DNA from: Clostridia bacterium
GTDB taxonomy: Bacteria; Bacillota; Clostridia; TANB77; CAG-465
Direction: 5' to 3'
Length of the DNA stretch: 64,000 bases
Assembly (NCBI GenBank): GCA_045534225.1
Contig: JAZSJJ010000001.1
Coordinates: 54,800 to 118,799, forward strand
In this document: positions 4,059 through 64,000 of the stretch, piece by piece
How the letters are laid out: the number at the start of each line of letters is the position of its first letter
Numbering within the stretch: the first letter of the stretch is position 1
The notes under the pieces: model-generated
Told to the model about the DNA's origin: nothing
Databases searched by the model: none
Seen by the model: the letters and a program-made list of their open reading frames with translations, nothing else
Translations under genes and position numbers: made by a program

Positions 4059-4826
4059 ATGTCTAAGAAAATACTTTCAACGATTTTGGTAATTGGGATG
4101 CTCTTTGCTTTTGGAGCAATGCCGATTAGTGCGTCAGCAAATTTTGTTGTGGAATATGCATATGATACAGCAAGTGATGAAGTAAAAGAGGTTATTACCG
4201 AAGAAGAATATAATGCTCTTGAGCTTTGGCTTAAAAAAAGCTTGTGGAAATATGGCATTCCTAATGCTGAAGAGTGTGAAAATATGGGCAACTCTCGAGC
4301 GGTTACAGACTCGCATTTTATTCCTAATTTTGCATCATTCACATTTTATACAAATGCAAGTTTTTCACAAACTCAAAACGTATGTGTGCCTCTTGCGATG
4401 ACAAATTGTATTTCATATTTTGATTACTTGGGCCGCTCACGCCTAGTATCTGGTAGTAGTGTGTCACAGTCTGAGTTCGATCAAATGTGCAATCTTACTG
4501 GTTGGTCGAACATAGATGGAAGCACACTTAAAGAAGGTGTAAATGGTTTGGCGTCTTACTGTAGATTGAGAAACTATACGGCGACAGATTTTGCACATTA
4601 TTTACAACATTGGGGAGGTGTGAAAGGCAATTTGGATTCCAACTATCCTGTATTTGTAACGCAAGATGTTGCTGGACAAACAAATGGTCATATTAATTTT
4701 GCAGTAGGATACAAAATTGAAGATGGAGAGAAACTTCTGTATGTTTATACTGGAGAATCAACTGCACCTATTGCTTGGCTTAATTTTGATGATGTGAAGC
4801 TTTACGACCGAATTTGGATCGAATAA
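4059..4826 (+). CDS. Secreted papain-like (C39/C1-like) cysteine peptidase candidate with a signal peptide; GC-elevated
   Basis: Signal peptide ending ISASA. Q-x5-C (QTQNVCV) and GHINFAVGY motifs resemble the papain-fold Cys/His dyad. About 40% GC in a roughly 27% GC background. An alternative start is ATG 4053. Confidence 0.45.
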   Translation: MSKKILSTILVIGMLFAFGAMPISASANFVVEYAYDTASDEVKEVITEEEYNALELWLKKSLWKYGIPNAEECENMGNSRAVTDSHFIPNFASFTFYTNASFSQTQNVCVPLAMTNCISYFDYLGRSRLVSGSSVSQSEFDQMCNLTGWSNIDGSTLKEGVNGLASYCRLRNYTATDFAHYLQHWGGVKGNLDSNYPVFVTQDVAGQTNGHINFAVGYKIEDGEKLLYVYTGESTAPIAWLNFDDVKLYDRIWIE

Positions 4827-4881
4827 TTGGCTTACGAAAATGTTAAATAAGTAAAAGTCTCGGCGCAATTTCTAAAATTAT

Positions 4882-4910
4882 ACTCCACAAAGCAAATTGC
4901 TTTGTGGAGT
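4882..4910. terminator. Bidirectional intrinsic terminator hairpin between convergent genes
   Basis: Perfect 12-bp stem actccacaaagc/gctttgtggagt with an AAAT loop. Confidence 0.7.
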
Positions 4911-4921
4911 ATCTATATATC

Positions 4922-5395
4922 TTATGTTAGAAGTTCAGTATAGTTTGTACTTGTATAATAATATGAATTATTTATAAGTATATTAAGTGTATTAATTTTT
5001 ATTGAAAGACTTATATCGTTTGAATGTAATAAGATAGTCACATGTTTTGGACCTAGTTGTAATTTATCACTAGAAATTCTATTGCCTTTAAAATTACCAA
5101 TTTTGTCAAGAAAAGCTTGTATTTTCAAAGTGTTAGTTATAGTTATAATTTCATCTTGCCCTAATTCATTAGAACAAAATTCTGCAGGGATATATACATC
5201 AATTTTTGTAATTTTCTTATTTATAATCTTTTTATAATCTTTGTTATCTGAAATAAATGATATTTTATCACTTTTAAAAGGTATGAATAAAATTCCTTCA
5301 TTAAATAAATAACACAATACTGAGAAGAAAATAATAAAAAATATAGTTAATATAATGGTTGTTATGACAATTATTTTTAACGTTTTGTTTTTCAT
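4922..5395 (-). CDS. Hypothetical membrane-anchored protein
   Basis: AGGAGGTG RBS before ATG at 5395 (MKNKTLKIIVITTII..). One N-terminal TM helix and no recognisable domain. Confidence 0.4.
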   Translation of the reverse strand: MKNKTLKIIVITTIILTIFFIIFFSVLCYLFNEGILFIPFKSDKISFISDNKDYKKIINKKITKIDVYIPAEFCSNELGQDEIITITNTLKIQAFLDKIGNFKGNRISSDKLQLGPKHVTILLHSNDISLSIKINTLNILINNSYYYTSTNYTELLT

Positions 5396-5781
5396 AAAGC
5401 ACCTCCTATTCAAGTATAATTCATAGTTCATATTAATACAATACAAATTAGATAAATTTTAGCTTTAATGGTAAAAAATACAAAATAATGACGTTGTCCG
5501 ACAAATTGCGTAATGGTAAAGCGATATTGTATGTGCAATAAGAAAATTAATATATCAATTTAGCAATGTTAGTATATTTGCGATATAAAGTATACCTCAT
5601 GTAGTATGTTTAAAAACGAGCATGTCAGCAACAGTTGGTGCAACAACAGATTTTAGCCTAGGGAAATAATAAATTTTAATAAAAGATTTAAGAAAAGGTT
5701 AATCTAGCTGTTAATATTTTTATTTATTTTCAAAATATACTTGCTTTTTATAATATAATTATAGTATAATAATTTTCGCAT

Positions 5782-5855
5782 AGGGGTATAGTTCATTGGT
5801 AGAATAAGAGTCTCCAAAACTCCAGAGCTTGGTTCGATTCCAAGTACCCCTGCCA
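5782..5855 (+). tRNA. trnW: tRNA-Trp (anticodon CCA)
   Basis: Folds by hand into a cloverleaf. Acceptor AGGGGTA/TACCCCT, D-arm GTTC..GAAT, anticodon loop CTCCAAA, T-arm CTTGG-TTCGATT-CCAAG, discriminator G and an encoded CCA. Confidence 0.85.
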
Positions 5856-5914
5856 AAGATAGACCCGATAGCAATCGGGTTTTATTATTATACAAAAGAT
5901 ATGAGGTATAACGT

Positions 5915-6532
5915 ATGAAAAAGAATTCATTTTATTATTCAGTTATTTTAATCATAGTATTATTATTAGTATCAACACTTCTTTTGGAAGAACAAATTGC
6001 TTCAAGAATTACAACAATAATTACAGTGTCTACCGCCTTGATAGGTGCAGTTGCTTTGTTTATTCAATATAAAAGGGATAAAGATGTAAATCAAGCAAGT
6101 TTCATAGTAGAATATGCCAAATATTTTTATAGTCTCAACGGTACAGAAGAATTAGTTATGCAGCTTGATGAATATCGTTTGGGAAATAAAGACGTTGTCA
6201 AAGATGTTTCGTATACAGCTATTGTTAACTATTTGTTTTGGTGTGAAGAATTAGCTACACTAGTACAAAAGAATATAATAGATATAGAAACAATAGATAA
6301 TTTATTTGCATATCTATTCTTTCTAATTACAAATAATAAATACATACAAGAAAAGGAACTTATCCCGCAAGCAGAGTTCTATAAAGGGACGTATTATCTT
6401 CATAAAGTTTGGACGGAATATAAGCTTAAGACAAAACAACCAATAATTACACCAGAAGAGAGTTTGGATAGAGTTCCAAAATATGATGAATATGCTAGAA
6501 AAGGAGATATATTCAACAAGAAAGAATATTAG
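5915..6532 (+). CDS. Hypothetical membrane protein: two N-terminal TM helices plus a cytoplasmic domain
   Basis: ORF with an RBS. The hydrophobic N-terminus was read directly; no family recognised. Confidence 0.4.
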   Translation: MKKNSFYYSVILIIVLLLVSTLLLEEQIASRITTIITVSTALIGAVALFIQYKRDKDVNQASFIVEYAKYFYSLNGTEELVMQLDEYRLGNKDVVKDVSYTAIVNYLFWCEELATLVQKNIIDIETIDNLFAYLFFLITNNKYIQEKELIPQAEFYKGTYYLHKVWTEYKLKTKQPIITPEESLDRVPKYDEYARKGDIFNKKEY

Positions 6533-6541
6533 GAGAAACAT

Positions 6542-13921: not shown

Positions 13922-15091
13922 ATGGACAAAATTATATATGTAGACCATAGTGCTACAACATATGTAAAAAAAGAAGTTTTAGATGAAATGTTACCATACT
14001 TTACAGAGAAGTATGGTAATGCTTCATCACCATATAAAATAGGTGGAGATTCTAGAGAAGCTGTAGAAAAAGCAAGAGAACAAGTAGCAAAAGCAATTAA
14101 TGCAAAAGCGAATGAAATCTACTTTACTGCGGGCGGAAGTGAATCAGATAATATGATAATCCGTGGTATTGCTTATGCAAACAAAAACAAAGGCAATCAT
14201 ATTATAACTTGTAAAATAGAGCATCCAGCAGTTCTAGAAACTTGTAAAGCTTTAGAAAAAGAAGGCTTTGAAGTAACATATCTATCTGTAGATGAAAATG
14301 GCTTTATATCTCTAGATGAACTTAGAAATAGTATTAAGGATACAACTATTCTTGTTTCTATTATGTTTGTAAATAACGAAATAGGAACAATACAAAATAT
14401 TTCAGAAATAACTAAAATAACTAAGTTTAAAGGTATATATTTCCATACAGACGCTGTTCAAGCAGTAGGAAATGTAAATATTGATGTAGACGCATTAGGA
14501 ATAGATGCATTATCTATGTCTGCACACAAATTCTATGGACCAAAGGGAATAGGAGCAGCTTACATAAAAAAGACAGTTAAGTTTACTCCAATTATTACTG
14601 GCGGACACCAAGAAAAAGGTAAACGTGCTGGTACAGAAAATGTTCCTGCTATAGTGGGTATGGGTAAAGCAATAGAGCTTGCCGCAGCCAATATTGAATC
14701 ATACAACAAAAAGCTAATGGAACTTAGAGATTATACAATAGATAGAATTCTAAATGAAATTCCATATGTTAAGCTAAATGGGGATAGAAATTCTCGCCTT
14801 GCAGGTAGCGTAAATATATCTTTCAAAGGGATAGAAGGAGAATCTTTACTTCTTATGCTAGATATGAAGGGAATAGAGGCTTCTAGCGGAAGTGCTTGTA
14901 CATCTGGTTCTTTGGATCCATCGCATGTGCTTTTAGCTATCGGGCTTAAACATGAAATAGCGCACGGTTCATTAAGACTTTCTTATGGTGAATGCAATAC
15001 AATGGAAGATGCAAAGTATATTGTAGATTCTTTAATAGAAATTGTAGCAAGACTTAGAGAAATGTCTCCACTTGATGCAAGCGAAATGTAA
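13922..15091 (+). CDS. nifS: Cysteine desulfurase (NifS/IscS class V aminotransferase)
   Basis: MDKIIYVDHSATT start, PLP-Lys motif SMSAHKFYGPKG and the catalytic Cys loop SSGSACTSG. Confidence 0.85.
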   Translation: MDKIIYVDHSATTYVKKEVLDEMLPYFTEKYGNASSPYKIGGDSREAVEKAREQVAKAINAKANEIYFTAGGSESDNMIIRGIAYANKNKGNHIITCKIEHPAVLETCKALEKEGFEVTYLSVDENGFISLDELRNSIKDTTILVSIMFVNNEIGTIQNISEITKITKFKGIYFHTDAVQAVGNVNIDVDALGIDALSMSAHKFYGPKGIGAAYIKKTVKFTPIITGGHQEKGKRAGTENVPAIVGMGKAIELAAANIESYNKKLMELRDYTIDRILNEIPYVKLNGDRNSRLAGSVNISFKGIEGESLLLMLDMKGIEASSGSACTSGSLDPSHVLLAIGLKHEIAHGSLRLSYGECNTMEDAKYIVDSLIEIVARLREMSPLDASEM

Positions 15092-15190
15092 TAAAACATA
15101 AATTAAAATTGAAAATAATCCGAGAATGTGTTATAATATTTCTCGGATGTTTTTTAGTCCAAATAATAATTTATTTGAAAGGAGATAGTT

Positions 15191-15460
15191 ATGAAAAAAG
15201 CTATCGTTGTCTCGCTCGCTGTAATCGGAGGAATTACTGTTGCTTGTACCGCATTTGTGGGAATCGCAAGTGCTGTACAAGCAGCAAGAGCAAAAAAGCG
15301 TTATGAAAGCATGACTCCCGAAGAACGTGAGGCTCATAACAAGAGGATGGATGGCGTATTGGCAGCCATTTTCGATGCTTATGGCTTTGATAAGGCTAAA
15401 ACAGAGGCTCCAGTGGAAGCTGAAACAGAATCTGCTTTGGCAGAAGAAGTAACGGCTTAA
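15191..15460 (+). CDS. Small membrane protein (N-terminal TM, charged Ala/Glu-rich tail); GC-elevated (about 45%)
   Basis: AGGAGA RBS. The -10 TGTTATAAT is flanked by a perfect inverted repeat CCGAGAA..TTCTCGG. A terminator hairpin follows. Confidence 0.5.
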   Translation: MKKAIVVSLAVIGGITVACTAFVGIASAVQAARAKKRYESMTPEEREAHNKRMDGVLAAIFDAYGFDKAKTEAPVEAETESALAEEVTA

Positions 15461-15470
15461 TGCAAATTAA

Positions 15471-15498
15471 AGGCACAGAAAATTCTGTGCCTTTTTCT
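15471..15498 (+). terminator. Intrinsic terminator
   Basis: aggcacagaaaattctgtgcct hairpin followed by TTTTT. Confidence 0.75.
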
Positions 15499-15583
15499 TT
15501 ATTTGATTTGAAAAATAAACTATTTATATGATATAATCTAGTTCGAAGATATTATATATCTAAATAATAATTTATTTGAAGGG

Positions 15584-15799
15584 ATGGTGGCTTGTTTGAA
15601 AACAGCTATCAAAATTGGATGCGTAGCATTTGGCACATTGGCACTTGCAACAGTTACTGCGTATTTTATGCGTAGAAGAAAAAAAGTTGTGGCAAAGATT
15701 GAACCTGAGACTAGAACAAACTTTTTGACTAAAACGGGAGTTTTGGACAGTAAAGAGTTTGTTGCGAAACTTAAAGAGAGGAAGAAAAAGAGCGTGTAA
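15584..15799 (+). CDS. Small membrane protein (TM plus RRRKK and a basic tail), in tandem with the previous one
   Basis: It shares a roughly 22-nt leader motif (aaataataatttatttgaaRgga) with the upstream small gene. A terminator hairpin agagcgtg..cacgctct overlaps the stop. Confidence 0.4.
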   Translation: MVACLKTAIKIGCVAFGTLALATVTAYFMRRRKKVVAKIEPETRTNFLTKTGVLDSKEFVAKLKERKKKSV

Positions 15800-15965
15800 T
15801 CCACGCTCTTTTTCATGTCTATTAACAGGTTACATAAAAAACCTTGAAACCCTTGTAAATAGCGACTTTTTGAGGTGTATAAAATAACGCTAAAAACACT
15901 TGCAAAAGGTCGTATTTTGGTATATAATGATGTCGTGACAAATCGATTAAAATATGAGGTGTAAA

Positions 15966-18900
15966 ATGCAAGAATATTTATTTGAAATTGATAGCGAGGT
16001 CAAACGTAATTTTAAGTTTATAAAATCAACTTATGATTTACTAAACATGAATAATGAACTTAAAATACCTTCGCATTCAGCAGGTCAATGGTTACTAGAT
16101 AACTTATATATTGTAGAACAAGAATATAATAATGCTAGATTATCATTGGAACACGGAATAAGAGTTGGATTACCAACTGTTAAGCCGGCAGACGGAAAGG
16201 AAACACTAAGAGTAATGTTTATGGCAAATGAGATCGTAAACAGAAACAATGGTGTTGTAGATGACGGTATAGTTAGTAATTACATACGCGAATTCCAAAA
16301 ACATACATATGTCACTTTTGAAGAATTATCTGTTTTACCAATTATGCTAAGAATAGCAGTAATAAGATATATTAAAAGAATATGTGTAAACATTTCTAAC
16401 GCAGAAATGCAGAAATTGAAAGTAGAGAAGAGAATAAACAAATCTATCTCTAAAAATGCAGACAAGGTAACTACAAAAACACTTAAAGGTTTAGGTGGTA
16501 TGAAAGAAGAACTTACTATGGCAAATGGTGTTAAAACAAGCAACACTGCTTACATAGAGTATATGGCATACAAACTAAAAGACTTTGGTGCAGGTGGAGA
16601 AGAATACCTTGAAGAATTAAAAGAGGAAACAAACAAAGCGGGATTTACTATCGATGAAGCTATAGAGAAAGAACATGATGAAATAGCAAAAACAACAAGC
16701 TTAATTGCTAATGCTATTACATCAATGAAAACAATCTCAACTACTAACTGGGGAGATGTTATAGTTCACGTTAACAGAATAGACGAAATCCTAAAAGAAG
16801 ATTACACTAAAGAATATAAAAAGTGTGATCATAAAACAAAATCTAGATATAGAGCAACAGTTATTAAACTGGCTAAAAAATATAAAGTTTCTGAAATGTA
16901 TGTAGCTAAAAAAGCAGTAGAGTGTTCATTTAAATATGAAAAACACGTAGGTCATTTCTTAATAGGAGATGATAAAATACTTCTTATTAAGCTAATGAAA
17001 AAGAATCCTACAGGACTTTGGTTATACAACAATGTTGTTAAACCTCTTAAGGCATATATATACATACTATTAATACTTGGATTCGCAGCAACATTTACTA
17101 TAATAGTAGATAAGTTATTTATAGATAATTATTCTATAGGATTTAGAATAACGCTTAACATAATATTATTTGCGTTCGGTATGGAACTTGCAGATAAGTT
17201 GTATTCATACTTAATAGGAAAGTTTGTTCATCCAGAGCCACTTCCTAGATTTAACTTTGCTAAAACTATAGATGAAGAAACAAGTACAATAATCGCTATG
17301 CCAACAGTTATTAATTCAACTGAAAAGCTAGATAAGATGATTAAGAAGATGGAAACTACATATCTTGCAAATAGATCACAAAATATGTATTACATGCTTT
17401 TAGGTGACTGTACATCTACACAAAAAGAATATATTGACCTTGACGAAAAGGTTGTTAAATATGGTAAAAAATTAATTGATGACCTTAATGCAAAATATCC
17501 AGCAGAACCTAAATTATTCAACTTCTTATATAGAAAAAGAGTATATTCAGAATCTGAAGGATGCTATATGGGTTGGGAAAGAAAACGTGGTGCGTTAACA
17601 CAACTTAACCTATTACTTTTAGGAAAACTTTCTAAAGGACAAATAGCAAACTCAATGTATTTAGTACATAATGAAATACCTAAGGTTAAATACCTTATAA
17701 CAATAGACGAAGATACTGCATTATCTTTAAACTCTGCAAAAGAGCTTGTTGCGATTATTTCGCACCCATTAAATAAAGCAGTACTTGCTAAGAATAAAAA
17801 GATAGTTAAATCTGGTTACGGATTAATCCAACCAGCAGTTGGACTAGACATTGAAGCTGCAAACAGCAGTATATTCTCTAAAGTTTTCGGAGGATTTGGT
17901 GGTCTAGACATATATACAAATGCTATTTCAAATATGTATCAAGACATATTTAAAGAAGCTATATATACAGGTAAAGGTATATATGATATAGGACTATTCG
18001 AACAACTAATAGGAGATAAAGTTCCAGAGAACTTAATTCTAAGTCACGACCTATTAGAAGGAAGCTTTATGAGAACAGGTCTTGCATCTGACGTTGAAGT
18101 ACAAGATGGATTCCCATCAAACTTTATAGCATATATGAAGAGAAATCATAGATGGTATAGAGGAGATATGCAAATCATATCTTGGATATTTAGACCTAAG
18201 AGCGGACTAAACTTACTATCTCGTTTCAAAATATTTGATAACTTAAGAAGAGAAATGCTAGATGTATTCTCGTTATTGTTATTAATAGTATCTATGTTCA
18301 TAAAGGGTAATACATTCGTATATGCGTTTGTTGTTACATTCTGTGTAATGAACTTTGGATATCTTTTATCTACATTTGACCAAATAGTATTTGGTAGAAA
18401 TGCAGAGAGAAAACAAAAACAATATATTCCGGTTATATATGGATTAAGAGCAAACTTACTTAAAATGGTGTTTAATATTATAACGCTTCCATATAAAGCA
18501 TGGATAACAATTCACGCTTTCTGTACGTCAATATATAGAATGCTTGTTTCTAAAAAGAAACTTCTAGAATGGGCAACTGCAGAAACTATAGAAAAAGGCG
18601 CTAAAGAAAAAATGTCATATGTTTACAGAAACATGTGGCCAAACACAATATTTGGTTCTGTTATGTTACTATACGCATTATTACATGGTGTAACAACAGG
18701 TAAAGGTATATTTGTATTAATTATGGGTATATTTATGCTAATAGCTCCGTTTGCAGCATATATAATGAGTAAGAAAGTAATATTCGATGGCGGAAATAAA
18801 TTAGACAAGAAAGAAATAGATTTAGTTAAAGAAGTAGGAGAAAAGACTTGGAAATTCTTCGAACATACAATGACAGATCTTAATAATTACTTACCACCAG

Positions 18901-21500
18901 ATAACTACCAAGAAAATAGAAGACCAAAGATAGTAAATAGAACTTCATCAACAAATATTGGTTATGGTGTACTTGCAATAATAAACGCCTATGACCTTGG
19001 ATATATTCCAGTTGAAGAAGCGGTAAATAAACTATATAACACATTAAAAACAGTAGAAAAACTAGAAAAGTGGAATGGTCACTTATATAACTGGTATAAC
19101 ATTAAAACATTAGAGCCATTAAAGCCTAGATTTGTATCTACAGTAGACAGCGGTAACTTTATAGCATGTATATATGTAACAATATCATTACTTAAAAAGC
19201 TATCAGCTTCTAAAATAGTAATGGAAAAATTATCAGACAAGATAATAGAATTACAAAGAATTTGTAATGAATTAGTAGCAGGAGTGGACTTTACTAAATT
19301 ATATGTAAAATCTAAAAACATATTCTCAATAGGGTTTGATGTAGAGGCAAATAAATGTGTAGACAGTTATTACGATATGTTAATGTCTGAATCAAGATTA
19401 ACAAGCTTAATTGCTATTTCAACATCTCAAATAACTTCAAAACACTGGTTTGCGCTTGCAAGACAACTTGTTAAAGTTGGAAACCTAAAAGGTCTTATTT
19501 CATGGAGTGGTACATCGTTTGAATACTTTATGCCAAACCTATTTACTAAGACACACAAATATACATTGATAGACGAAGCATTAAGTTTTGCATTAAACAG
19601 CCAAATAGATTATGCTAAAACAGCTGGTGTGCCTTGGGGTGTATCTGAATCTGCATTTGCGGTACAAGATAACGAACAACATTACCAATATAAAGCATTT
19701 GGTATTCCATGGCTTGGACTTAAGAGAGGTTTAAATGATAATATGGTAATTTCACCTTATTCATCATTAATTTGCTTACCTTATGCTCCTAAAAAAGTTG
19801 TTAACAACATTAAGCACTTAAAGAAATATAATTCATATTCTCACTATGGTTTCTATGAAGCAATAGACTTCACAAAGAGACATATTGGAAGAGATAGAAA
19901 ATATGAAGTAGTAAGAACATATATGGCTCACCACCAAGGTATGGCTCTTACAGCAATAAATAACTTTATAAATAACGGAATAATACAAACAAGATTCCAC
20001 GAGAATCCAAACATAAATGCTTGTGATATTCTATTAAAAGAAAGAGTGCCGTTATCTGTGCCATTAAAAGAAAGCAAGAACTCAATAGACAACAAATTTG
20101 TAGAACCTGCTAAAGAAGCGTTTACAAGTGGTGTTGCATATGAAGATTTTGCTAAATTTAAGAACAGAACTACAGCTATGATTAATACTCATACTAACGG
20201 TAGACTTTCAACTATAATTAAAGACACTGGTGCAAACTTTATGTACTACAAGAACAATGCAATTACTAAGAACAGATTTGTTAAGGATGAAACTTTAGGA
20301 AATGTTGTAGTATTTACAGATAAAACAAGTGGTAAAGTTTGGTCATCAACATACCATCCATTCTATTCTGAGCCTGAAGAATATTCAGTATCTTACTCAT
20401 TATCTTCAAGTGACTTTAGAAGAAAGGATGGACCAATAGAAACAATAACTAAAATATTAGTAGCTCCTAAATTAGATATGGAAATACGTAAATATACGCT
20501 ATTTAATTCATCTAATGAAAGACGTGAAATACTAATAAATACAGAACTAGAACTTGCAATGGCAGACGAAAACGCAAACATAATACATCCTTCATTTAAT
20601 AATTTATTAATAGAAGAATATTATGATGAAAACTTAGAAGCGTTAGTTGCAAGAAAACGTCCTAGAGGAAACCCAGAAGACGATTTCTATGTATTTACTA
20701 AATTAGTAGGTATAGATTTAGCTTATGAAATAGAAACAGAAAAAACTAAGCTATTAAAGGATAATGCTATGCATGCATATGACGGCAAGGTAACCAAATA
20801 TCCATTATGGCCAGTAATGTCATATAGAGCAAGAATTCTTTTAGATCCTGGCGAATCACAAACATTCTATTACTTAACTGGTGCGGCAGATACTAAATAT
20901 AATGTATCTCACGCAATAGTAAATGCAGATAAAGAAACAATAGAAAAAGAAATTCTATTCTCATTACAAAAAGAAAATGTAAATGCTAAATATCAAAAAC
21001 TTGTTCCAAATAGAGCAGCTGCATATAATGATATACTTTCTAAGATACTATTTGAGCATGATAAAGATATGGATGTAAACAAATATTGGGATTCTAAATA
21101 TAGTCAAGCAATGTTATGGAGATTTGGTATTTCTGGAGATTTACCAATTATAACAGTTCCAATAGGAAGATTAGAAGATTCAGCGTTAATTACAGAAGTT
21201 GTAGAATTTATGGATTACGTTAAATCTAGAAAAGTTGACCTAGATATTATCGTTGTAATGGACGAAGAACTATATAGTGGAGAACCTATCAAAACGCATA
21301 TTGACAAAGTGTTAAGTAAAGTGGTATATATGACTTATACAAGAGGAAATATATATACAGTAAACGTAAATACAATGCCTGAAAATGAAAGAGGAATCTT
21401 TGATTTTGTAAGCAGATTAAAAATTGATGGCGTAGATATATTTATGCCAAAGAAAACAAAAGAAAAACCTATGAGTGAGGTGGATGTGAATGAACTATAA
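15966..21500 (+). CDS. Cyclic beta-1,2-glucan synthase-like protein, part 1: N-terminal TM region, a GT84 glycosyltransferase domain, a second TM cluster and an alpha/alpha cyclisation-type domain
   Basis: LLGDCTST (GT84 DxD region), multi-TM blocks and a RTSSTNIGYGVLAI..KWNGHLYNWYN region like the Cgs/NdvB middle domain. GAGGTG RBS before ATG 15966. A TTGCAA-17-TATAAT promoter lies upstream. Confidence 0.7.
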   Translation: MQEYLFEIDSEVKRNFKFIKSTYDLLNMNNELKIPSHSAGQWLLDNLYIVEQEYNNARLSLEHGIRVGLPTVKPADGKETLRVMFMANEIVNRNNGVVDDGIVSNYIREFQKHTYVTFEELSVLPIMLRIAVIRYIKRICVNISNAEMQKLKVEKRINKSISKNADKVTTKTLKGLGGMKEELTMANGVKTSNTAYIEYMAYKLKDFGAGGEEYLEELKEETNKAGFTIDEAIEKEHDEIAKTTSLIANAITSMKTISTTNWGDVIVHVNRIDEILKEDYTKEYKKCDHKTKSRYRATVIKLAKKYKVSEMYVAKKAVECSFKYEKHVGHFLIGDDKILLIKLMKKNPTGLWLYNNVVKPLKAYIYILLILGFAATFTIIVDKLFIDNYSIGFRITLNIILFAFGMELADKLYSYLIGKFVHPEPLPRFNFAKTIDEETSTIIAMPTVINSTEKLDKMIKKMETTYLANRSQNMYYMLLGDCTSTQKEYIDLDEKVVKYGKKLIDDLNAKYPAEPKLFNFLYRKRVYSESEGCYMGWERKRGALTQLNLLLLGKLSKGQIANSMYLVHNEIPKVKYLITIDEDTALSLNSAKELVAIISHPLNKAVLAKNKKIVKSGYGLIQPAVGLDIEAANSSIFSKVFGGFGGLDIYTNAISNMYQDIFKEAIYTGKGIYDIGLFEQLIGDKVPENLILSHDLLEGSFMRTGLASDVEVQDGFPSNFIAYMKRNHRWYRGDMQIISWIFRPKSGLNLLSRFKIFDNLRREMLDVFSLLLLIVSMFIKGNTFVYAFVVTFCVMNFGYLLSTFDQIVFGRNAERKQKQYIPVIYGLRANLLKMVFNIITLPYKAWITIHAFCTSIYRMLVSKKKLLEWATAETIEKGAKEKMSYVYRNMWPNTIFGSVMLLYALLHGVTTGKGIFVLIMGIFMLIAPFAAYIMSKKVIFDGGNKLDKKEIDLVKEVGEKTWKFFEHTMTDLNNYLPPDNYQENRRPKIVNRTSSTNIGYGVLAIINAYDLGYIPVEEAVNKLYNTLKTVEKLEKWNGHLYNWYNIKTLEPLKPRFVSTVDSGNFIACIYVTISLLKKLSASKIVMEKLSDKIIELQRICNELVAGVDFTKLYVKSKNIFSIGFDVEANKCVDSYYDMLMSESRLTSLIAISTSQITSKHWFALARQLVKVGNLKGLISWSGTSFEYFMPNLFTKTHKYTLIDEALSFALNSQIDYAKTAGVPWGVSESAFAVQDNEQHYQYKAFGIPWLGLKRGLNDNMVISPYSSLICLPYAPKKVVNNIKHLKKYNSYSHYGFYEAIDFTKRHIGRDRKYEVVRTYMAHHQGMALTAINNFINNGIIQTRFHENPNINACDILLKERVPLSVPLKESKNSIDNKFVEPAKEAFTSGVAYEDFAKFKNRTTAMINTHTNGRLSTIIKDTGANFMYYKNNAITKNRFVKDETLGNVVVFTDKTSGKVWSSTYHPFYSEPEEYSVSYSLSSSDFRRKDGPIETITKILVAPKLDMEIRKYTLFNSSNERREILINTELELAMADENANIIHPSFNNLLIEEYYDENLEALVARKRPRGNPEDDFYVFTKLVGIDLAYEIETEKTKLLKDNAMHAYDGKVTKYPLWPVMSYRARILLDPGESQTFYYLTGAADTKYNVSHAIVNADKETIEKEILFSLQKENVNAKYQKLVPNRAAAYNDILSKILFEHDKDMDVNKYWDSKYSQAMLWRFGISGDLPIITVPIGRLEDSALITEVVEFMDYVKSRKVDLDIIVVMDEELYSGEPIKTHIDKVLSKVVYMTYTRGNIYTVNVNTMPENERGIFDFVSRLKIDGVDIFMPKKTKEKPMSEVDVNEL

Positions 21501-23646
21501 AGCATATAATGGATATGGTGGTTTTAATATAACAGGAGACGAGTATGAGGTGTTAAACACCCATACTCCTGTCCCTTGGTGTAATGTATTAACAAACGAG
21601 AGATTCGGTACCTTAGTATCTACATATGGAACGGTTTATTCATTCTATAAAAATGCTGGTGAATTTAAATTAACTCACTGGTGTAATGACTGGGCAGATT
21701 TTGTACCAGGTGAAAAATTTAGAGGTATATATGATACAGGGTATAATCTAACTTTTGGTTTTGGTTATACTAAAGTAAGAGAAGAACACGGCAATATTGA
21801 AAGAAATATGGATATATTTGTTCCAATAGATGATGATGTAAAAGTACATTATATAGAAATTAAGAATAATAGAGCTATAGACAAAGAAGTAACTATAGAA
21901 TACACTCCAGATATGGTTATGGGTGTTGCTAAAGAGAAATCTAGTCCATACGTATTATGCAAATTAGAAGATGATGCAATGTACTTTAAGAATCCATATA
22001 ACGAGTTCTTTGGTGGTGTTACTACATATGTCAAAGGTGTTCTGTTAGAAGGCACAGAAGGCGCTGTGGAATATGACGAAGAAACACATACGGTTAGAGT
22101 AAGATGTATTGCAAAGAAGGATGAAGTAAGAAGCATAGCGATTCTATTTGGCGCTACTGATGAAGGAATAGAAAAGGCTAAGCATGTACTTGAAAAATAT
22201 TCTAGCGAGGCCAATATATTAGCTGAATACGAAAAAACAAAAGCGTACTGGAGAAGTAAAGTTGTACGTAATTTCAAAACTGGAAATGAGTACGTAGATA
22301 TCTTAGCTAATGGGTGGTTAATGTATCAAACATTAGCATCTAGACTATTTGCTAGAACTGGACTTTACCAAGCTGGTGGAGCTTTTGGGTATAGAGATCA
22401 ATTACAAGATACATTAGCATTAATTTCATCTTGGCCAGAAAGAACAAGAGCGCAAATAATAAAACACGCACACAAACAATTTGAAAAAGGTGATGTTTTG
22501 CACTGGTGGCACGAACATAATTCAAGAGGAATTAGAACTCGCTTTAGCGATGACTATCTATGGCTACCATATGTTCTTAGTGAATATATATTTAAGACTA
22601 AAGATATGACTGTATTAAATGAGACAGCTTCATTTTTAGAAGATAAACCTTTAGGCGAACACAAGGAACTTTATGATTACTTTGCGCCTACTGGAGTCTA
22701 TGCTACTGTTTATGAACATGCGGTAAGAGCTATAAAATACGGCTTGTCTAGAAAAGGTAGACATGGGTTGTTAGAAATAGGCGATGGAGATTGGAATGAC
22801 GGTTTCAGCAATATAAACGGTGAATCTGTATGGCTAACATTCTTTATGATAGACATATTAGATAGATTTATTAAACTAGCAGATATGATGAAAAACGAAG
22901 AAGATTCTAAATATTTTGCAAACGAAAGACATATTCTAAAACATACAGTTATAGATTATGCATGGACGGGAGAATACTTTGCAAGGGCATTCTATCCAGA
23001 TGGAACTCCAATAGGAACACCAGATAGTCCAGATTGCAAAATAGACTTAATATCTCAAGCTTGGGCGGCTATAGCTCTTAAAGAATATATAGACTGCAAA
23101 GAAGAGATAGATTTAAGCTTAGAGAGTGCAGAAAAGTATCTAGTAGATAGAGAACATGGAGTAATAAAACTTCTTTATCCACCATTTGATAGTCCTAAGA
23201 ATAACCCAGGGTACATTAAAGCATATGTTCCTGGTGTTAGAGAAAATGGAGGACAATATACACACGCGGCAATATGGCTTGCAAAAGCATATTTTGAAAT
23301 AAATAAGCCAGAAAAAGCGTTAGATATATTAAGTATATTAAACCCAATAAATCATAGCAACGATAAAGAAAGAGCTGAGATTTATCAAGTAGAACCTTAT
23401 GTTGTTGCTGCTGATGTTTATGCAAATCCAGATCATGTTGGACGTGGCGGATGGACTTGGTATACAGGTTCTTCAGGTTGGATGTATAAAGTAATAGAAG
23501 ACAATTTTAATCAAGTAGGAACAGAAACTACTGAACTTAAGGAAGAAAAGAAACCAGTTAAAAGAACTACTAGAAAGAAAAAAGTAGAACCGGTTGCAGA
23601 AGAAGTAAAAGAAGAAACTACTACAGAAGTAGAAAATGTAGAATAA
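21490..23646 (+). CDS. GH94 (cellobiose phosphorylase-like) domain protein, equivalent to the C-terminal part of cyclic beta-1,2-glucan synthase. The ATG overlaps the upstream stop.
   Basis: GAFGYRDQLQD and GDGDWNDG GH94 catalytic-region motifs. The start ATGAACTATAA overlaps the TAA of the preceding ORF. Lys/Glu-rich C-terminal tail. Confidence 0.75.
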   Translation: MNYKAYNGYGGFNITGDEYEVLNTHTPVPWCNVLTNERFGTLVSTYGTVYSFYKNAGEFKLTHWCNDWADFVPGEKFRGIYDTGYNLTFGFGYTKVREEHGNIERNMDIFVPIDDDVKVHYIEIKNNRAIDKEVTIEYTPDMVMGVAKEKSSPYVLCKLEDDAMYFKNPYNEFFGGVTTYVKGVLLEGTEGAVEYDEETHTVRVRCIAKKDEVRSIAILFGATDEGIEKAKHVLEKYSSEANILAEYEKTKAYWRSKVVRNFKTGNEYVDILANGWLMYQTLASRLFARTGLYQAGGAFGYRDQLQDTLALISSWPERTRAQIIKHAHKQFEKGDVLHWWHEHNSRGIRTRFSDDYLWLPYVLSEYIFKTKDMTVLNETASFLEDKPLGEHKELYDYFAPTGVYATVYEHAVRAIKYGLSRKGRHGLLEIGDGDWNDGFSNINGESVWLTFFMIDILDRFIKLADMMKNEEDSKYFANERHILKHTVIDYAWTGEYFARAFYPDGTPIGTPDSPDCKIDLISQAWAAIALKEYIDCKEEIDLSLESAEKYLVDREHGVIKLLYPPFDSPKNNPGYIKAYVPGVRENGGQYTHAAIWLAKAYFEINKPEKALDILSILNPINHSNDKERAEIYQVEPYVVAADVYANPDHVGRGGWTWYTGSSGWMYKVIEDNFNQVGTETTELKEEKKPVKRTTRKKKVEPVAEEVKEETTTEVENVE

Positions 23647-23652
23647 TATTTT

Positions 23653-23683
23653 TAAGAGTGCATAGAAATATGTGCTCTTTTTA
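23653..23683 (+). terminator. Terminator hairpin, copy 1 of an identical 31-bp direct repeat
   Basis: taagagtgcatagaaatatgtgctcttttta; it is repeated exactly at 24913-24943. Confidence 0.7.
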
Positions 23684-23747
23684 TGTTTTTATTGACTAAA
23701 GGCAAAATATAAAATATACTATGTATATATGTGCAAAGGAGAAAAAA

Positions 23748-24902
23748 GTGAACAAGAAACAAGGAATATCATTAATAGTATTAGTAATAACTATAATAGT
23801 TATGATAATATTAGCGTCTGTAGTTGTTATTTCAATAAGCGATACAGGAATAATAAACAGAGCGAATCAAGCAGTAGACGAATCAAACGAGAAGCAGGTA
23901 CAAGATTTAGCTGCGTTGGTTTGGGCTGATTCTTTTATGACTGGAAAAAGGGGTGCTGAGTTAGAAGAAGATGTCTTAGACAAACTAAAAGACTATGTAG
24001 ATAAATATGAGATAATAGTTACAGATACAGGAGCTAGTGTAGTTAACAAAGATTCATTATTAAATACAACACTAGGACACTTAATTACAAGTGCCAAAGA
24101 CTATGGAAAAACTATAAATTATGAAGCGAACGGAGTAACAGATTGGAAAGTATTTTATCATACAGAAAACTATGTATATTTAATAGCCACTGAAGCATTA
24201 GCCATGGATCAACTGCCAATACAAAAGATGGCTGCAGAACATAAAATTCCGTTAGTAACAAAGCTTGTAACTAAACCGAATGGAACAACAAAAGTAATTG
24301 GACATATAAATCTTCAAAGCAGTGCTACCCACAGAGATGTGATAGCGGCAACAATACAACGCCCAGAATTATGGATGGCCAATTTTGGGGATTATTCAAA
24401 AAATTATGGCAAGCTAATATCTTGTTATTTAGATGAAACAATATGGGATTTATATAAGAATACAACATCAAGATACAGTGAGTACATAGAAGGAGCTATA
24501 GGCACTCCCACTGTCGAAATGTTTGTAGCAAGTTGGAATGCTAAAAGAGAAGCAACTGGAGATTTTGAAACGTATAACAAGAAACTTGCATTAGTATCTG
24601 ATGGTAGTAAAGGATACTATGTAAATGATATAACTTCTGGTGAGCCTGCTACAAGTAATACGTCTTACCAATATATCACGCCAACCGATACTTTATATAC
24701 ATGGGATTATTCAAGCCACAATTCGGATATATATTTAGCGGGAATGTCTACCTTCGATAACGGTTCGCAAATGATATTACAAATGGGGTATGGTATTAGA
24801 TATTTCGGAAATAATGGTGCAACAGGTGGATTAAGACCTGTAATTTGCTTAAGAGCAGATGTGCCAGCAGGAACAGGAATAAAAACAGATTTTATAATAT
24901 AA
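23748..24902 (+). CDS. Pilin-like N-terminal module protein, paralogue 2 of 3. The C-terminal domain differs from paralogue 1 and is related to paralogue 3.
   Basis: AAAGGAG RBS then GTG 23748 (NKKQGISLIVLVITIIVMIILA). The N-terminal 65 aa are conserved with 163 and 59496. C-terminal PVICLRA..AGTG..TDF motif shared with paralogue 3. Confidence 0.55.
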   Translation: MNKKQGISLIVLVITIIVMIILASVVVISISDTGIINRANQAVDESNEKQVQDLAALVWADSFMTGKRGAELEEDVLDKLKDYVDKYEIIVTDTGASVVNKDSLLNTTLGHLITSAKDYGKTINYEANGVTDWKVFYHTENYVYLIATEALAMDQLPIQKMAAEHKIPLVTKLVTKPNGTTKVIGHINLQSSATHRDVIAATIQRPELWMANFGDYSKNYGKLISCYLDETIWDLYKNTTSRYSEYIEGAIGTPTVEMFVASWNAKREATGDFETYNKKLALVSDGSKGYYVNDITSGEPATSNTSYQYITPTDTLYTWDYSSHNSDIYLAGMSTFDNGSQMILQMGYGIRYFGNNGATGGLRPVICLRADVPAGTGIKTDFII

Positions 24903-24912
24903 ATTTAATATA

Positions 24913-24943
24913 TAAGAGTGCATAGAAATATGTGCTCTTTTTA
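24913..24943 (+). terminator. Terminator hairpin, copy 2 of the identical 31-bp direct repeat
   Basis: Exact repeat of 23653-23683, immediately after the stop of the 23748 gene. Confidence 0.7.
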
Positions 24944-25083
24944 CACTCCCGTTGATTAAGATGTAAAAGTAATCGTTTTAGACATAAAAACTCCTTATTT
25001 GACCTTTTAGAGCCTTTGTGCTATAATTTTATGTGTAAGATATATGTAAATAAATTATAATTATATATTAGGAGAATTAGCAC

Positions 25084-25377
25084 ATGATGGAAAAAATTGA
25101 AAGCCTATGGAGAGTAGGAATTCGGTTTAATGAAGTTCAGTTTATTGGAATAGCGCCAAGGCTTGGTGGGATATTCGGTAACGCAACTGAGCAAGCTCTT
25201 TTAACCAAAGCTGTAGATTATATTGAACAAGCTCAAAAGTTTGCAGAATGTATACCGGTATCCAAGCTGCCTGACGGAATGGAAGTCGTAAGCAAAAACG
25301 ATGTAATGGTGGGTTTTACGCTAATGTTTAAGGAAGCAGAAAAAGCAAAATTATTCCTTGAAAGCATTAAGCAGTAA
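25084..25377 (+). CDS. Hypothetical small protein, GC-elevated (about 40%)
   Basis: ORF with an AGGAGAA RBS and a downstream hairpin plus T7 terminator (attgtcaca..tgtggcaat). No family recognised. Confidence 0.4.
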   Translation: MMEKIESLWRVGIRFNEVQFIGIAPRLGGIFGNATEQALLTKAVDYIEQAQKFAECIPVSKLPDGMEVVSKNDVMVGFTLMFKEAEKAKLFLESIKQ

Positions 25378-61982: not shown

Positions 61983-61999
61983 TTATATATTTACCCTTT

Positions 62000-62503
62000 C
62001 TAAATTCTTTCTTTAATTTCTTTTATTTTTTCTTCATCATGTATGTATTCTTGTCTTTCTTTTACAAAATTTTTAGAACCTCTTTTTTCAAAATCATATC
62101 TAGGTATTAGTTGTATGTGGAAGTGATTCCTAGGTCCATCACACATAGTACATAAATATACACTTTCAGAACCATATACTTCTTTTAGTATGTTCATCAT
62201 TTTCTTTGCAAAAACAAATATCTTATTACATAAATCATCTGGAATATCCATCATATCTTTATAATGTGCCTTAGAAGATATTGCGGTATGTCCCTTTGCT
62301 CTTGGATTGCCTACTAAAAAGCATTCTATTTCCTCATCTTCATATATCACTTTATCTGTGTTCTCTCCGTATAGACAATTATTATGAGTCCTATCAAAGC
62401 AAGTAGGACAAATGCCGTTATCTACTAAATCTGGCATTTTAACTTCACCTTTAATTATTAGTTCTTCTAATTCTTTATCAGATAGTCCCTTTAGCCCTTG
62501 CAT
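62000..62503 (-). CDS. HIT-superfamily protein of the GalT-like H-x-H-x-Q branch, a putative nucleotidyl transferase or phosphorylase
   Basis: HFHIQLIP motif, a CxxC near the N-terminus, and a setting inside the EPS operon. Confidence 0.5.
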   Translation of the reverse strand: MQGLKGLSDKELEELIIKGEVKMPDLVDNGICPTCFDRTHNNCLYGENTDKVIYEDEEIECFLVGNPRAKGHTAISSKAHYKDMMDIPDDLCNKIFVFAKKMMNILKEVYGSESVYLCTMCDGPRNHFHIQLIPRYDFEKRGSKNFVKERQEYIHDEEKIKEIKERI

Positions 62504-63594
62504 ACTCCACCTCTTAAATATTTTATAGACTTTTCTTTTTCAACATTTAACTTATCTTTTACTGGTGCGTATTCTATTTCTTCATCTATTTTTTTGCTTG
62601 TAACATCGTCTAATGAATTTACAGCCCTTTTCTCTAGTCCAGTAAGACTAATTAAGTCTTTTAATCGTCCACCTCTAGATTTAGGCATTACGGCATAAAA
62701 TTTTCTTTCGAATATTATACTAAATACCAAGCCGTGGAATGAGTTTGTAACAATATACTCTGCGTTCTTAAAAGCATTTATAAAATCCGCAGGCCCTTTT
62801 GTATACATAGACATCAGTTCATTTTTATATGCATTATATTTTCTAAAATGAATAACTCTAATACCAGTTTTTTGAGATAAATAATCTGCTATTTTAGTTA
62901 TTTCTGGATTTTCAAACAACGTGTATACAAGTATATATTTTGTATTATCTAACTCTACCGTTTTTTCTTTACTAACCAGTTCTTCCCACTTATCTTTTTC
63001 AAGAAGCAGTGTGGGATCAAGTACTTTCTCTACTTTTTTGCTAAGAATACTTTCTAAACCTTTTGCAATATTTTCTTCTCTTACAGATATATATTCTAAG
63101 TCTTTTAATTTATCCTTAAACTTATCTTTATTTACTTCTAAAAGTTCATCGTTTCCAACACTTGCACCATATATTATTTTATTTTCATTTTCTTTCTTTA
63201 GATTTAAGGTATATATATCTGAAAGTCCGCCTGTAAGGTCTGGATTAAATATTTGATCGCTTCCAGCAACAAGTGTGTACTCATTAGTTATATCTTTTTC
63301 TATATCTTCTTTTGTATAATATTTTTTAGTGTTTCCATCTAGATATCTACCACAAAAGCTCTTAAAACTTTTCTTCCTTTTTAAGTTCCTTGGCATATAC
63401 CATAAACTAGAGAAAAAAGATTTAAGAGAGTTAGTTCTTATTAATTTGTAATCCTTAAGAATATGCTTATCTTGATAGTTAATAAACGATGGTTCTGTGT
63501 CCATATCCTTTAGCACCTCTTTTAATGCATACGCTTGAAGATTTGCTCCATAATTTTCTGCGTTATGGAATGTTAAAATCTTTACTTTTTTCAT
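62491..63594 (-). CDS. Polysaccharide pyruvyl transferase
   Basis: MKKVKILTFHNAENYGANLQAYAL N-terminus typical of the PS_pyruv_trans family. First gene of the minus-strand EPS operon. Confidence 0.7.
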   Translation of the reverse strand: MKKVKILTFHNAENYGANLQAYALKEVLKDMDTEPSFINYQDKHILKDYKLIRTNSLKSFFSSLWYMPRNLKRKKSFKSFCGRYLDGNTKKYYTKEDIEKDITNEYTLVAGSDQIFNPDLTGGLSDIYTLNLKKENENKIIYGASVGNDELLEVNKDKFKDKLKDLEYISVREENIAKGLESILSKKVEKVLDPTLLLEKDKWEELVSKEKTVELDNTKYILVYTLFENPEITKIADYLSQKTGIRVIHFRKYNAYKNELMSMYTKGPADFINAFKNAEYIVTNSFHGLVFSIIFERKFYAVMPKSRGGRLKDLISLTGLEKRAVNSLDDVTSKKIDEEIEYAPVKDKLNVEKEKSIKYLRGGVCKG

Positions 63595-63772
63595 AAAAAT
63601 CTCCTTTTTTAATTATACCAAAATACATATGTTTTAGCAATATATTAAGTGTATTTTGCCATGTTTTATGTCTACCTATACTTGATGAATTTGCAATTAT
63701 ATATTTTTTGTGATATAATCCATTTGCGTTATACCCCAAAAATTTATTCATAATTATGAGAAAGGACAGCCT

Positions 63773-64000
63773 ATGAAGTATGTAGTAGGAAAAATCGGTA
63801 GCATGTTAGGTGATGAATTCCGAGTTCGTTACACTAATCCCAAACCAATCGAAGCCAATTCCGAAAGCGAAGCAATTGACTTCTACAACAAAAATTATCT
63901 TCTCTCATCTGATGGTCGCCCCAAATTTTCGCTGAAGGCAGCAATGGAATTTTCAAGATGCATAGGTTATATGGATGATGACGGCAGATTGCTCATCCCC
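63773..64000 (+). CDS. Hypothetical protein, 5' part only (it continues beyond the window); GC-elevated (about 42%)
   Basis: GAAAGGA RBS and a GATATAAT -10 upstream. No family recognised. Confidence 0.35.
   Translation, partial: MKYVVGKIGSMLGDEFRVRYTNPKPIEANSESEAIDFYNKNYLLSSDGRPKFSLKAAMEFSRCIGYMDDDGRLLIP

Follow-up and report, generated by a model that had tools for sequence, protein, structure and literature searches.

Background

SR1/SR1P and RNAIII/hld are dual-function small RNA/small-protein genes of Firmicutes, and in polymorphic-toxin systems arrays of orphan immunity genes occur. Prophage morons, in turn, are single-gene units that have their own promoter and terminator and a composition unlike that of the surrounding DNA. 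Here we describe eight short open reading frames (ORFs), labelled A to H, that resemble these systems in part and that lie in a 64,000-nt stretch of the genome of a Clostridia bacterium (GCA_045534225.1, contig JAZSJJ010000001.1, positions 54,800-118,799, forward strand); the whole stretch is referred to below as the window, and coordinates are those of the window. A first-pass annotation had singled out these ORFs as GC-elevated orphans in the gaps between housekeeping genes, and had proposed that they were either repeated small horizontal insertions, for example moron-like cargo, or a genome-specific class of small proteins. All eight are present at or near the positions where it placed them, with the starts of F and C corrected here. 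We find that their codon usage is atypical for the host, and that they appear to be eight separate small genes belonging to seven unrelated families rather than parts of a single system. With somewhat less than even confidence, we lean towards the view that they are accessory genes that have entered, or been exchanged at, variable positions between genes.

Like SR1/SR1P and RNAIII/hld, the candidates are short, stand-alone intergenic units with their own promoter and terminator, and B in addition has a conserved internal hairpin. They differ from those genes in that they have no known base-pairing target or RNA family, and in that the transcripts of seven of the eight fold no better than shuffled sequence. 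Like prophage morons, they are single-gene units with their own signals and a composition that departs from that of the DNA around them, but their neighbours are rho, ileS, nifS, tig-clpP-clpX and the gene of an Xer-type recombinase, with no prophage, and for most of them the chromosomal position is shared among several species.

The orphan genes of gut bacteria surveyed by Vakirlis & Kupczok (2024, PMC11293555) offer a further comparison. In that survey, the GC content of orphans and their GC content at third codon positions (GC3) follow the values of conserved genes in a nearly one-to-one manner, and GC is lower in orphans that are phage-derived or arose de novo. The candidates resemble these orphans in being short, confined to a narrow lineage and subject to purifying selection, in using sub-optimal codons and in often having membrane segments, but unlike them they are richer in GC3 than their host. 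Seen against the survey this upward direction is unusual, though not unprecedented for rare genes.

Sequences compared

Regions from sister species were fetched with ClpX and IleS as anchors (the resulting loci are cited by L numbers where they need to be told apart), and the other genes of the window (n=46) served as the compositional control. The ClpX of the window is 97% identical to that of a Clostridia metagenome-assembled genome from sheep rectum, 93-95% identical to those of three more species-level genomes (L002, L004 and L005), and 76-82% identical to those of sister genera. The GC content of these ClpX-matched relatives and sister genera is about 29-31%. With IleS as seed, a metagenome scan yielded no relative above 61% identity, and its hits were of no use for checking gene positions.

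Codon usage of the candidate genes

The GC content of the window is 30.5% and that of its intergenic DNA 24.5%, in place of the background of about 27% that had been assumed. Among the candidates it is 0.374 for A, 0.452 for B, 0.380 for C, 0.384 for D, 0.386 for E, 0.412 for F, 0.357 for G and 0.412 for H; six genes fall within the range of 38-45% originally ascribed to all of them, while A and G lie just below it. Windowed GC, which had been suggested as a check, does not discriminate: in 200-bp windows total GC also reaches peaks of 0.40-0.44 within ileS, tsaD and other ordinary genes. Total-GC windows are therefore misleading for spotting A to H, whereas GC3 is not. Counted per gene, all eight have a GC content of at least 0.357, as opposed to a maximum of 0.356 among the other genes, and their GC3 is 0.27-0.41 versus 0.135-0.258 in the 46 other genes (mean 0.194, standard deviation 0.031). 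The binomial P of the GC3 excess ranges from 7e-3 to 1e-7 per gene, and the GC3 of the candidates is 1.4 to 2 times that of host core genes.

The high GC of the candidates is mostly due to codon choice. Third-position A drops from 0.46 in the other genes to 0.30 in the candidates, which avoid the A-ending codons that dominate in the host (ATA, TTA, AGA, CCA and ACA). ATA makes up 0.68 of isoleucine codons in the other genes and 0.17 in the candidates; as shares of the codons for their respective amino acids, TTA goes from 0.51 to 0.12, AGA from 0.81 to 0.41 and CCA from 0.59 to 0.17, and TTG rises from 0.05 to 0.26. The pyrimidine-ending pairs AAC/AAT, GAC/GAT, TTC/TTT and CAC/CAT are not shifted, and in C, E and G the GC content is nearly flat over the three codon positions. 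When pooled, the candidate codons score -1.03 to -1.05 nats per codon on loci of 34-39% GC versus -1.16 on the host, i.e. the codon usage of these genes is closer to that of Firmicutes of about 34-39% GC than to that of the genome in which they reside.

High expression was rejected as a cause of the bias, as tig, clpP and rpmE keep the usual codons of the host and NNC codons are not enriched. Relaxed constraint or fast evolution was rejected as well, since the fast-evolving genes at 30294-31538, 23721-24902 and 5915-6532 stay at a GC3 of 0.16-0.23. Position on the lagging strand does not explain the bias either: the lagging-strand recombinase gene (31637-32608) and the ORF at 4922-5446 have a GC3 of 0.16-0.17, and lagging-strand orientation accounts only for the preponderance of C over G at third positions in E, F and H.

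Transcription units

We scanned the 64 kb for a strict extended -10 promoter pattern, TTGNNN-N14-16-TGNTANAAT. Ten sites were found, seven of which lie 47-57 nt upstream of the starts of B to H used in the scan; the other three are before rpmE, before a pyruvyl-transferase gene and inside a gene. In a separate promoter scan of 15000-34200, the six best TG-containing sites were exactly the promoters of B to G. No match to the strict pattern was found for A. A strong AAGGAG-type ribosome-binding site stands in front of all eight candidates, every complete candidate gene has a terminator hairpin (H is truncated by the end of the window), and each of B to H has an AU-rich leader of about 50 nt. 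The leaders of B and C have an exact stretch of 23 nt in common, AAATAATAATTTATTTGAARGGA (2 matches versus 0.02 expected), and TAATAATTTA occurs in six copies in the window, four of which are in the leaders of B, C, E and F, close ahead of the ribosome-binding site. We take each of B to H to be an autonomous single-gene transcription unit with a near-consensus extended -10 promoter of the housekeeping-sigma kind, and their expression is probably constitutive. The earlier statement that every candidate has its own ribosome-binding site, promoter and terminator holds for B to G and, as far as the promoter and ribosome-binding site are concerned, for H, whose 3' end lies beyond the window, but not for A, which lacks a strict promoter match.

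This architecture brings up an explanation other than horizontal acquisition, one that we consider possible but unlikely, namely that the candidates belong to a class of small-protein genes that is native and specific to this clade; these would be transcribed strongly and autonomously, and their GC-enriched and A3-depleted coding sequence would be actively maintained. Such maintenance could come from selection acting on the short single-gene mRNA (its stability against AU-cutting nucleases, its folding or its translation rate) or from a gene-specific regime of mutation or repair. The promoter and leader counts given above are in line with such a class, as is an association observed in 22 related loci, where GC3 is at least 0.27 in 27 of 47 ORFs that have this promoter and in 22 of 326 that do not, bearing in mind that these counts include orthologues and are not independent. 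The promoter-bearing, GC3-rich ORFs in the related loci include unrelated small genes in L006, L007, L008 and L011. The codon shift is also specifically one away from A-ending codons that leaves two-fold pyrimidine codons unmoved, while a plain difference in donor GC predicts otherwise, and the GC3 of orthologues persists despite synonymous divergence (dS) of 0.5-1.8, with no excess of GC-to-AT changes.

On the other hand, the proteins are unrelated and differ in predicted location, and no common function is evident. Seven of the eight candidates have unremarkable z-scores of mRNA folding (-2.0 to +0.6, compared with -0.8 +/- 1.1 in controls), B being the exception. Relatives of E and F in L007, L010 and L169 have a GC3 that is merely 0.03-0.06 above that of their hosts, and the offset is therefore not intrinsic to that family. 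In addition, strong promoters may just mark stand-alone genes, since they are also found at rpmE, tig and the LysM gene, all of which have normal GC3. The genome-specific class of small proteins that had been put forward initially thus gains from the common promoter and leader, the recurrence in sister genera and the lack of compositional decay, and loses from the fact that, save for E and F, the proteins are not related to each other. We are more doubtful still that the candidates form a distinct class of GC3-raised, A3-depleted short messages that owe their composition to selection or to a gene-specific mutational regime and not to foreign origin, in which short, autonomous and strongly transcribed messages would have a separate codon usage, with B adding a conserved hairpin in its coding region. 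If a native class did exist, it would provide a natural system for studying synonymous-site selection in short mRNAs.

Coding status and distribution

Comparison with their orthologues shows B to G to be genuine protein-coding genes under purifying selection, because the orthologues occupy the same positions, substitutions are mostly at third codon positions, and the ratio of nonsynonymous to synonymous divergence (dN/dS) is 0.05-0.4. The gene status of A and H rests on the anatomy of the units and, for A, on a Pfam match. One may also consider that the GC-rich patches are structured non-coding RNAs or chance ORFs and not protein genes. The nearly flat GC over codon positions in C, E and G would be compatible with this, and so would the folding of B (z = -4.1), the hairpin of which has two compensatory changes. 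However, Rfam gives only the tRNA-Trp in the window and folding z-scores are ordinary except for B, whereas B, D, E, F and G show third-position substitutions and a dN/dS well below 1, E and F resemble each other at the protein level, the predicted fold of F has a mean predicted local distance difference test score (pLDDT) of 93, and strong ribosome-binding sites are present throughout. We therefore regard the non-coding explanation as very improbable overall; for D to G it is essentially refuted, and B may have a dual role as mRNA and RNA structure.

For six of the seven testable candidates, one to four sister species have an orthologue at the same position, and several candidates seem to predate the split of the genus. 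Given these same-position orthologues and the purifying selection, they are not recent strain-specific insertions. Presence is nonetheless patchy: A is absent from four relatives, some species lack C, E or G or have a replacement for it, and every congener examined has B, D and F. The eight are thus far from being uniformly conserved core genes, as several are missing in some congeners and A is missing from all those examined. Outside the genus, no candidate tested there was detected, save for remote relatives of the E/F family.

In sister genomes the same positions are occupied by unrelated genes. A family of 147-171 aa with N- and C-terminal membrane helices, for instance, recurs there after nifS and clpX (L161:14107-14622, L162:14225-15192, L007:11332-11811 and L008:11321-11764). 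Its GC3 is 0.26-0.41, and its members are weakly alike and unrelated to the candidates of the window.

Divergence and recombination

Most dS values of the candidates amount to 2-4 times those of the genes next to them, B in L163 and F in L001 being the exceptions. For E and F, the order of species by dS disagrees with that obtained with ClpX and Tig; E is saturated in comparison with the closest species and has a dS of 0.74 in comparison with a more distant one. This discordance suggests that alleles of E and F have been exchanged. Between 6526 and 23691 the identity of the window to L163 and L166 is a mosaic, ranging from 78 to 99% per 300-bp window (mean 92-93%), and homologous recombination between these nominal species therefore appears to be frequent. 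A tract of near-identity between B and its counterpart in L163 was considered as a special case and rejected, because core genes also have tracts of 97-99% identity.

Recombination might also raise GC by itself. If the intergenic positions were recombination hot spots, frequent GC-biased gene conversion would lift synonymous GC, and the mosaic identity, the discordant dS order around the candidates, their raised synonymous divergence, and the number of AT-to-GC changes in D and F taken together (24, versus about 10 expected from core per-site rates) could all be accounted for in this way. We nevertheless consider this improbable. The rise in GC ends sharply at the coding boundaries, and the promoters, leaders and spacers are very AT-rich and highly conserved; AT-rich accessory genes exist in the same positions, such as the ORF at 4922-5446 on the minus strand (GC 0.215) and a 167-aa gene in L166 (GC 0.286); and core segments with signs of recombination lack raised GC3.

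As a separate observation, single-species synonymous changes in the core genes tig, clpP, clpX and the Xer-type recombinase gene, polarised by comparing the window with L001, L002, L004 and L005, amount to 101 AT-to-GC versus 37 GC-to-AT. Such a flux implies an equilibrium GC3 near 0.39 versus an actual 0.19, and it may be an artefact of parsimony, stem from mildly deleterious variants that are still segregating, or reflect genuine selection for A/T-ending codons.

Searches for mobile elements

The candidates are flanked by housekeeping genes, with no prophage or plasmid context. They had no match below E = 0.03 in PHROGs and none in the PADLOC defence library. A tblastn search with a joined query of all eight proteins found nothing in 50,697 phage records, and the joined query found nothing in 72,556 plasmid records. 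IMG/VR held no relative of E/F or of G, the two families with which it was queried. An all-against-all comparison of the flanks showed that these have in common only the promoter and ribosome-binding-site consensus and the short leader motif, with no bounding repeats, and no att-like sites, integration scars or shared recombination site were seen around the candidates; the sole repeat near A is one weak, AT-rich repeat of 26 nt.

A literal moron or phage interpretation fails, there being no match to phages, plasmids or PHROGs, nor to IMG/VR for E/F and G. Cassettes bounded by repeats or of the integron type were likewise discarded, as the flank comparison revealed no common bounding site. Of the original suggestion of small, moron-like horizontal insertions, what survives is the autonomy of the units, the foreign-looking codon usage and the patchy presence; the link to phages and plasmids does not, for want of context, matches and att-like sites.

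Origin of the genes

In the scenario that we tentatively prefer, that of acquisition or exchange at variable intergenic positions, accessory genes limited to this genus would enter recombination-prone intergenic positions in the backbone, of about 30% GC, of these uncultured gut Clostridia. Some of these entries would have taken place before the genus diversified, genes would have continued to be exchanged at those positions, and purifying selection would then retain the acquired genes. Import or exchange is favoured because codon usage fits genomes of 34-39% GC, the distribution is patchy, the allele of G in L005 is high in GC, and the dS values of E and F are discordant; together these point to a horizontal origin of the candidates.

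Several observations weigh against this scenario. No donor lineage or mobile vector was found in the phage, plasmid and defence searches, and there are neither integration scars nor shared flanking repeats. The fit of the pooled codons to a genome of 35-39% GC barely beats that of unbiased codon choice (-1.03 vs -1.10), and the relatives of E and F that were read in L007, L010 and L169-L171 sit in AT-rich loci of 26-31% GC, those of the first three having the small GC3 offset noted above. The shared promoter and leader architecture, which recurs with GC3-rich small genes in sister genera, looks more native than foreign. Genes that have remained at the same position with a dS of 0.5-1.8 would be expected to drift towards the composition of the host, yet no such drift is seen: polarised single-species changes in D and F taken together number 24 AT-to-GC versus 11 GC-to-AT (by parsimony, in a small sample). 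The raised dS, the stable GC3 of orthologues, this direction of change and the association with promoters would all argue against simple import followed by decay, and the persistence of a foreign-looking codon usage is one feature that the scenario leaves unexplained.

If acquisition or exchange did take place, the biology would be routine, in that AT-rich gut Clostridia would carry small accessory genes at fixed intergenic positions. It would then be a higher GC that marks the accessory genes, contrary to the usual rule, by which foreign DNA is AT-rich, and a scan combining GC3 with the promoter pattern would be a cheap way of finding such genes in metagenome-assembled genomes.

The E/F family

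E (28843-29187, minus strand) encodes 114 aa, with a GC content of 0.386 and a GC3 of 0.41; its promoter is at 29238-29266 and its terminator at about 28806-28838, both on the minus strand. F (29315-29662, minus strand; GC 0.41, GC3 0.40) has its promoter at 29713-29742 and its terminator at 29283-29310, also on the minus strand. Homologues of F begin with MKTFQ and a ribosome-binding site is located 8 nt upstream of TTG 29662, which is most likely the start codon and would give a protein of 115 aa. The two genes are paralogues (31% identity, E = 2e-17) that are alike at the protein level only, and they are the only related pair among A to H. No exact protein is on record for E, and the same is true of the ClpP of the window.

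Orthologues of E at the same position are 89% identical in L001 and L005, with differences at the three codon positions of 10/3/52, and L002 and L004 lack the entire unit, a clean indel of about 470 bp. For F, the same-position orthologues are 97, 92, 86 and 82% identical in L001, L004, L005 and L002, respectively, with codon-position differences of 7/3/35 and a dN/dS of 0.05-0.19, and the GC3 of all five F orthologues is 0.36-0.41. A profile search with the family in 1.84 billion representative proteins gave 27 matches, among them one to a repeat protein that looks spurious. For F, the AlphaFold2 model has a pLDDT of 92.9 and shows a meander of four strands and, after it, three helices; no significant fold relative was found in the PDB or among viral models. 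E/F is a rare, unannotated family of about 115 aa that is predicted to fold with confidence, has no detectable fold relative and often comes in tandem pairs.

Remote relatives of the family are found downstream of clpX in L007 and L010. In L169, on a contig of 26.5% GC, two genes of the family lie 20 nt apart on the same strand (L169:3486-4230) and probably form an operon. This pair is situated between spoIIID and a gene cluster ending in mreB/mbl, a neighbourhood of sporulation genes.

E and F resemble the orphan immunity arrays of polymorphic-toxin systems in being tandem, diverged, presumably cytosolic paralogues of about 115 aa with their own promoters and with a copy number that varies between species. 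They differ from them in that there is no toxin gene near them and no match to an immunity family or fold, and in that a dN/dS of 0.05-0.19 gives no sign of diversifying selection.

Genes B and C

The promoter of B (15109-15137, plus strand) consists of TTGAAA, a 17-nt spacer and TG-n-TATAAT, and agrees with the consensus at 11 of 12 positions with the TG; it is a strict match 54 nt ahead of the start codon and is conserved in L163 and L166. B itself (15191-15460, plus strand) encodes 89 aa with an N-terminal membrane helix and an acidic tail (GC 0.452, GC3 0.31), and its terminator (15469-15494, plus strand) is formed by a stem of 11 pairs and a T run behind it. At the same position, L163/L164 have an orthologue of 100% amino-acid identity and L166-L168 one of 69%. 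Differences between B and its orthologue in L166 are distributed 21/21/40 over the codon positions, with a dN/dS of 0.27.

The part of B that encodes the membrane helix contains a 22-bp hairpin (15238-15286), and the coding sequence folds at z = -4.1 to -4.7 in comparison with shuffled sequences. In L166 the stem is kept by two double changes (C-G to U-A and U-A to C-G), which alter the amino acids too. Being derived from two distinct sequences, this covariation is suggestive at best.

The promoter of C (15508-15537, plus strand; TTGAAA, 18 nt, TG-n-TATAAT) likewise agrees at 11 of 12 positions with the TG and is a strict match. The ORF is open from 15584, but the start of C is most likely TTG 15596, which is the start called in L163/L164 and gives a leader spacing like that of B. 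With this start, C (15596-15799, plus strand) encodes 67 aa with an N-terminal membrane helix and a basic tail, and has a GC3 of about 0.34. Its terminator (15784-15814, plus strand; a 13-pair stem and then a T run) overlaps the stop codon. Orthologues of C have been found only in L163/L164, at 63-65% amino-acid identity; the species of L166 lacks C and has in its stead the unrelated 167-aa gene of GC 0.286 mentioned above. Codon-position counts alone fail to separate the two strands for C, and it was assigned to the plus strand because its promoter, its terminator and the conserved N- and C-terminal ends are all on that strand.

The helices suggest that the products of both genes are located in the membrane. 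A type I toxin-antitoxin role, which would call for a small hydrophobic peptide and an antisense RNA overlapping its gene, was considered for B and C; each protein has one membrane helix and B has a strong internal hairpin, but at 89 and 67 aa, with long charged tails, B and C are larger than typical toxins of that kind.

Genes D, G and H

D (25084-25377, plus strand) is located upstream of tig and encodes a soluble protein of 97 aa (GC 0.384, GC3 0.33). Its promoter (24999-25027, plus strand; TTGACC, 17 nt, TG-n-TATAAT) is almost invariant in four sister species. The orthologues at the same position are 92, 90, 91 and 73% identical in L001, L004, L002 and L005, respectively; differences from L001 by codon position are 3/4/30, and dN/dS is 0.05-0.10, with a dS of 0.77-1.8 versus 0.17-0.37 for tig.

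G (33473-33979, plus strand) encodes a soluble protein of 168 aa (GC 0.357, GC3 0.32), with a promoter at 33388-33416 (plus strand; TTGAAA, 17 nt, TG-n-TATAAT) and a terminator at 33988-34013. Its same-position orthologues are 87% identical in L004 and 62% in L002, with codon-position differences of 14/9/55, and L005 has at this position a 35%-identical allele with a GC content of 0.47 and a GC3 of 0.59. No Pfam match was found for G at E <= 0.1, and its best match among PDB sequences (E = 0.023) is not significant; the model obtained by folding G alone had a pLDDT of 41 and was not used. H is partial, with 76 codons up to the end of the window (63773-64000, plus strand; GC 0.412, GC3 0.40), and has a promoter at 63691-63719 (plus strand; TTGCAA, 17 nt, TG-n-TATAAT), a strict match 54 nt before the start codon.

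D to G are predicted to be small proteins that probably reside in the cytosol. The first-pass annotation had seen no obvious family for any of the candidates, and for D, G and H there is indeed nothing significant in Pfam, NCBIfam, PHROGs or PADLOC; the paralogy of E and F had been overlooked, as had a match of A above the Pfam cut-off for Peptidase_C39_2.

Gene A and the rho-pnuC interval

A (4059-4826, plus strand) encodes 255 aa (GC 0.374, GC3 0.27) and has the ribosome-binding site AGGAG at 4046-4050. It matches the Pfam family PF13529 (Peptidase_C39_2) with E = 1.7e-5 and 25.9 bits, the gathering threshold being 24, and residues 105-228 align to positions 7-136 of the 143 in the profile. 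The translation has a signal-like hydrophobic N-terminus and the motifs Q-x2-N-x-C (QTQNVC) and G-H-x5-G-Y (NGHINFAVGY). A is thus predicted to be a secreted protein with a Peptidase_C39_2-like cysteine-peptidase fold, the secretion being suggested by the N-terminus. Its likeness to the family lies in a match that exceeds the gathering threshold and spans 130 of the 143 profile positions, with the Cys and His motifs in the expected order; it differs in that the match is weak, in that the product is predicted to be secreted and in that the gene stands alone, with neither an ABC-transporter fusion nor a bacteriocin neighbour. A had no NCBIfam or PDB sequence match, no exact protein on record, and no tblastn match in L161, L162, L163 or L166, all of which span the rho-pnuC interval. 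Between A and the convergent ORF 4922-5446 (minus strand) lies an inverted repeat of 16 bp (4880-4912, both strands; 100% complementary, 1-nt loop) that is likely to be a terminator for both directions.

The rho-pnuC interval around tRNA-Trp (3755-6541 in the window) is hypervariable in the genus. It measures 244 bp in one species, and in others it holds an unrelated 501-aa gene, or a 546-aa gene together with a NUDIX gene. In the window it contains A, the AT-rich membrane-protein ORF 4922-5446 (minus strand, GC 0.215) and a 205-aa gene. An imperfect direct repeat of 26 nt (3982-4007 and 5880-5905) flanks A, ORF 4922-5446 and the tRNA, and may be due to chance.

Other features of the window

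The backbone of the window is made up of ordinary Firmicute housekeeping genes, including rimO, rho, tRNA-Trp, pnuC, an RNase J gene, gltX, ileS, nifS, tig, clpP, clpX, genes for a LysM protein and an Xer-type recombinase, yebC, polA, whiA, rpmE and tsaD. Gene orientation and GC skew both switch at about 32.6-33.5 kb (within 31600-34100); genes converge on this zone from both sides and the cumulative skew is maximal there, so that it looks like a replication terminus. The gene of the Xer-type tyrosine recombinase (31637-32608, minus strand) adjoins the zone, which also holds G and a small HTH-like ORF (33061-33336, minus strand). No dif site was matched within 8 mismatches with the B. subtilis and E. 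coli consensus sequences as queries.

The window also carries a polysaccharide-synthesis cluster. The region 15954-23646 encodes a protein of 1848 aa with GT2, glucoamylase-like and GH94 supersandwich domains that resembles cyclic beta-1,2-glucan synthase, and after it comes a GH94 phosphorylase-like protein of 718 aa. This pair is kept across the clade, though it is unusual cargo for a small AT-rich genome of gut Clostridia.

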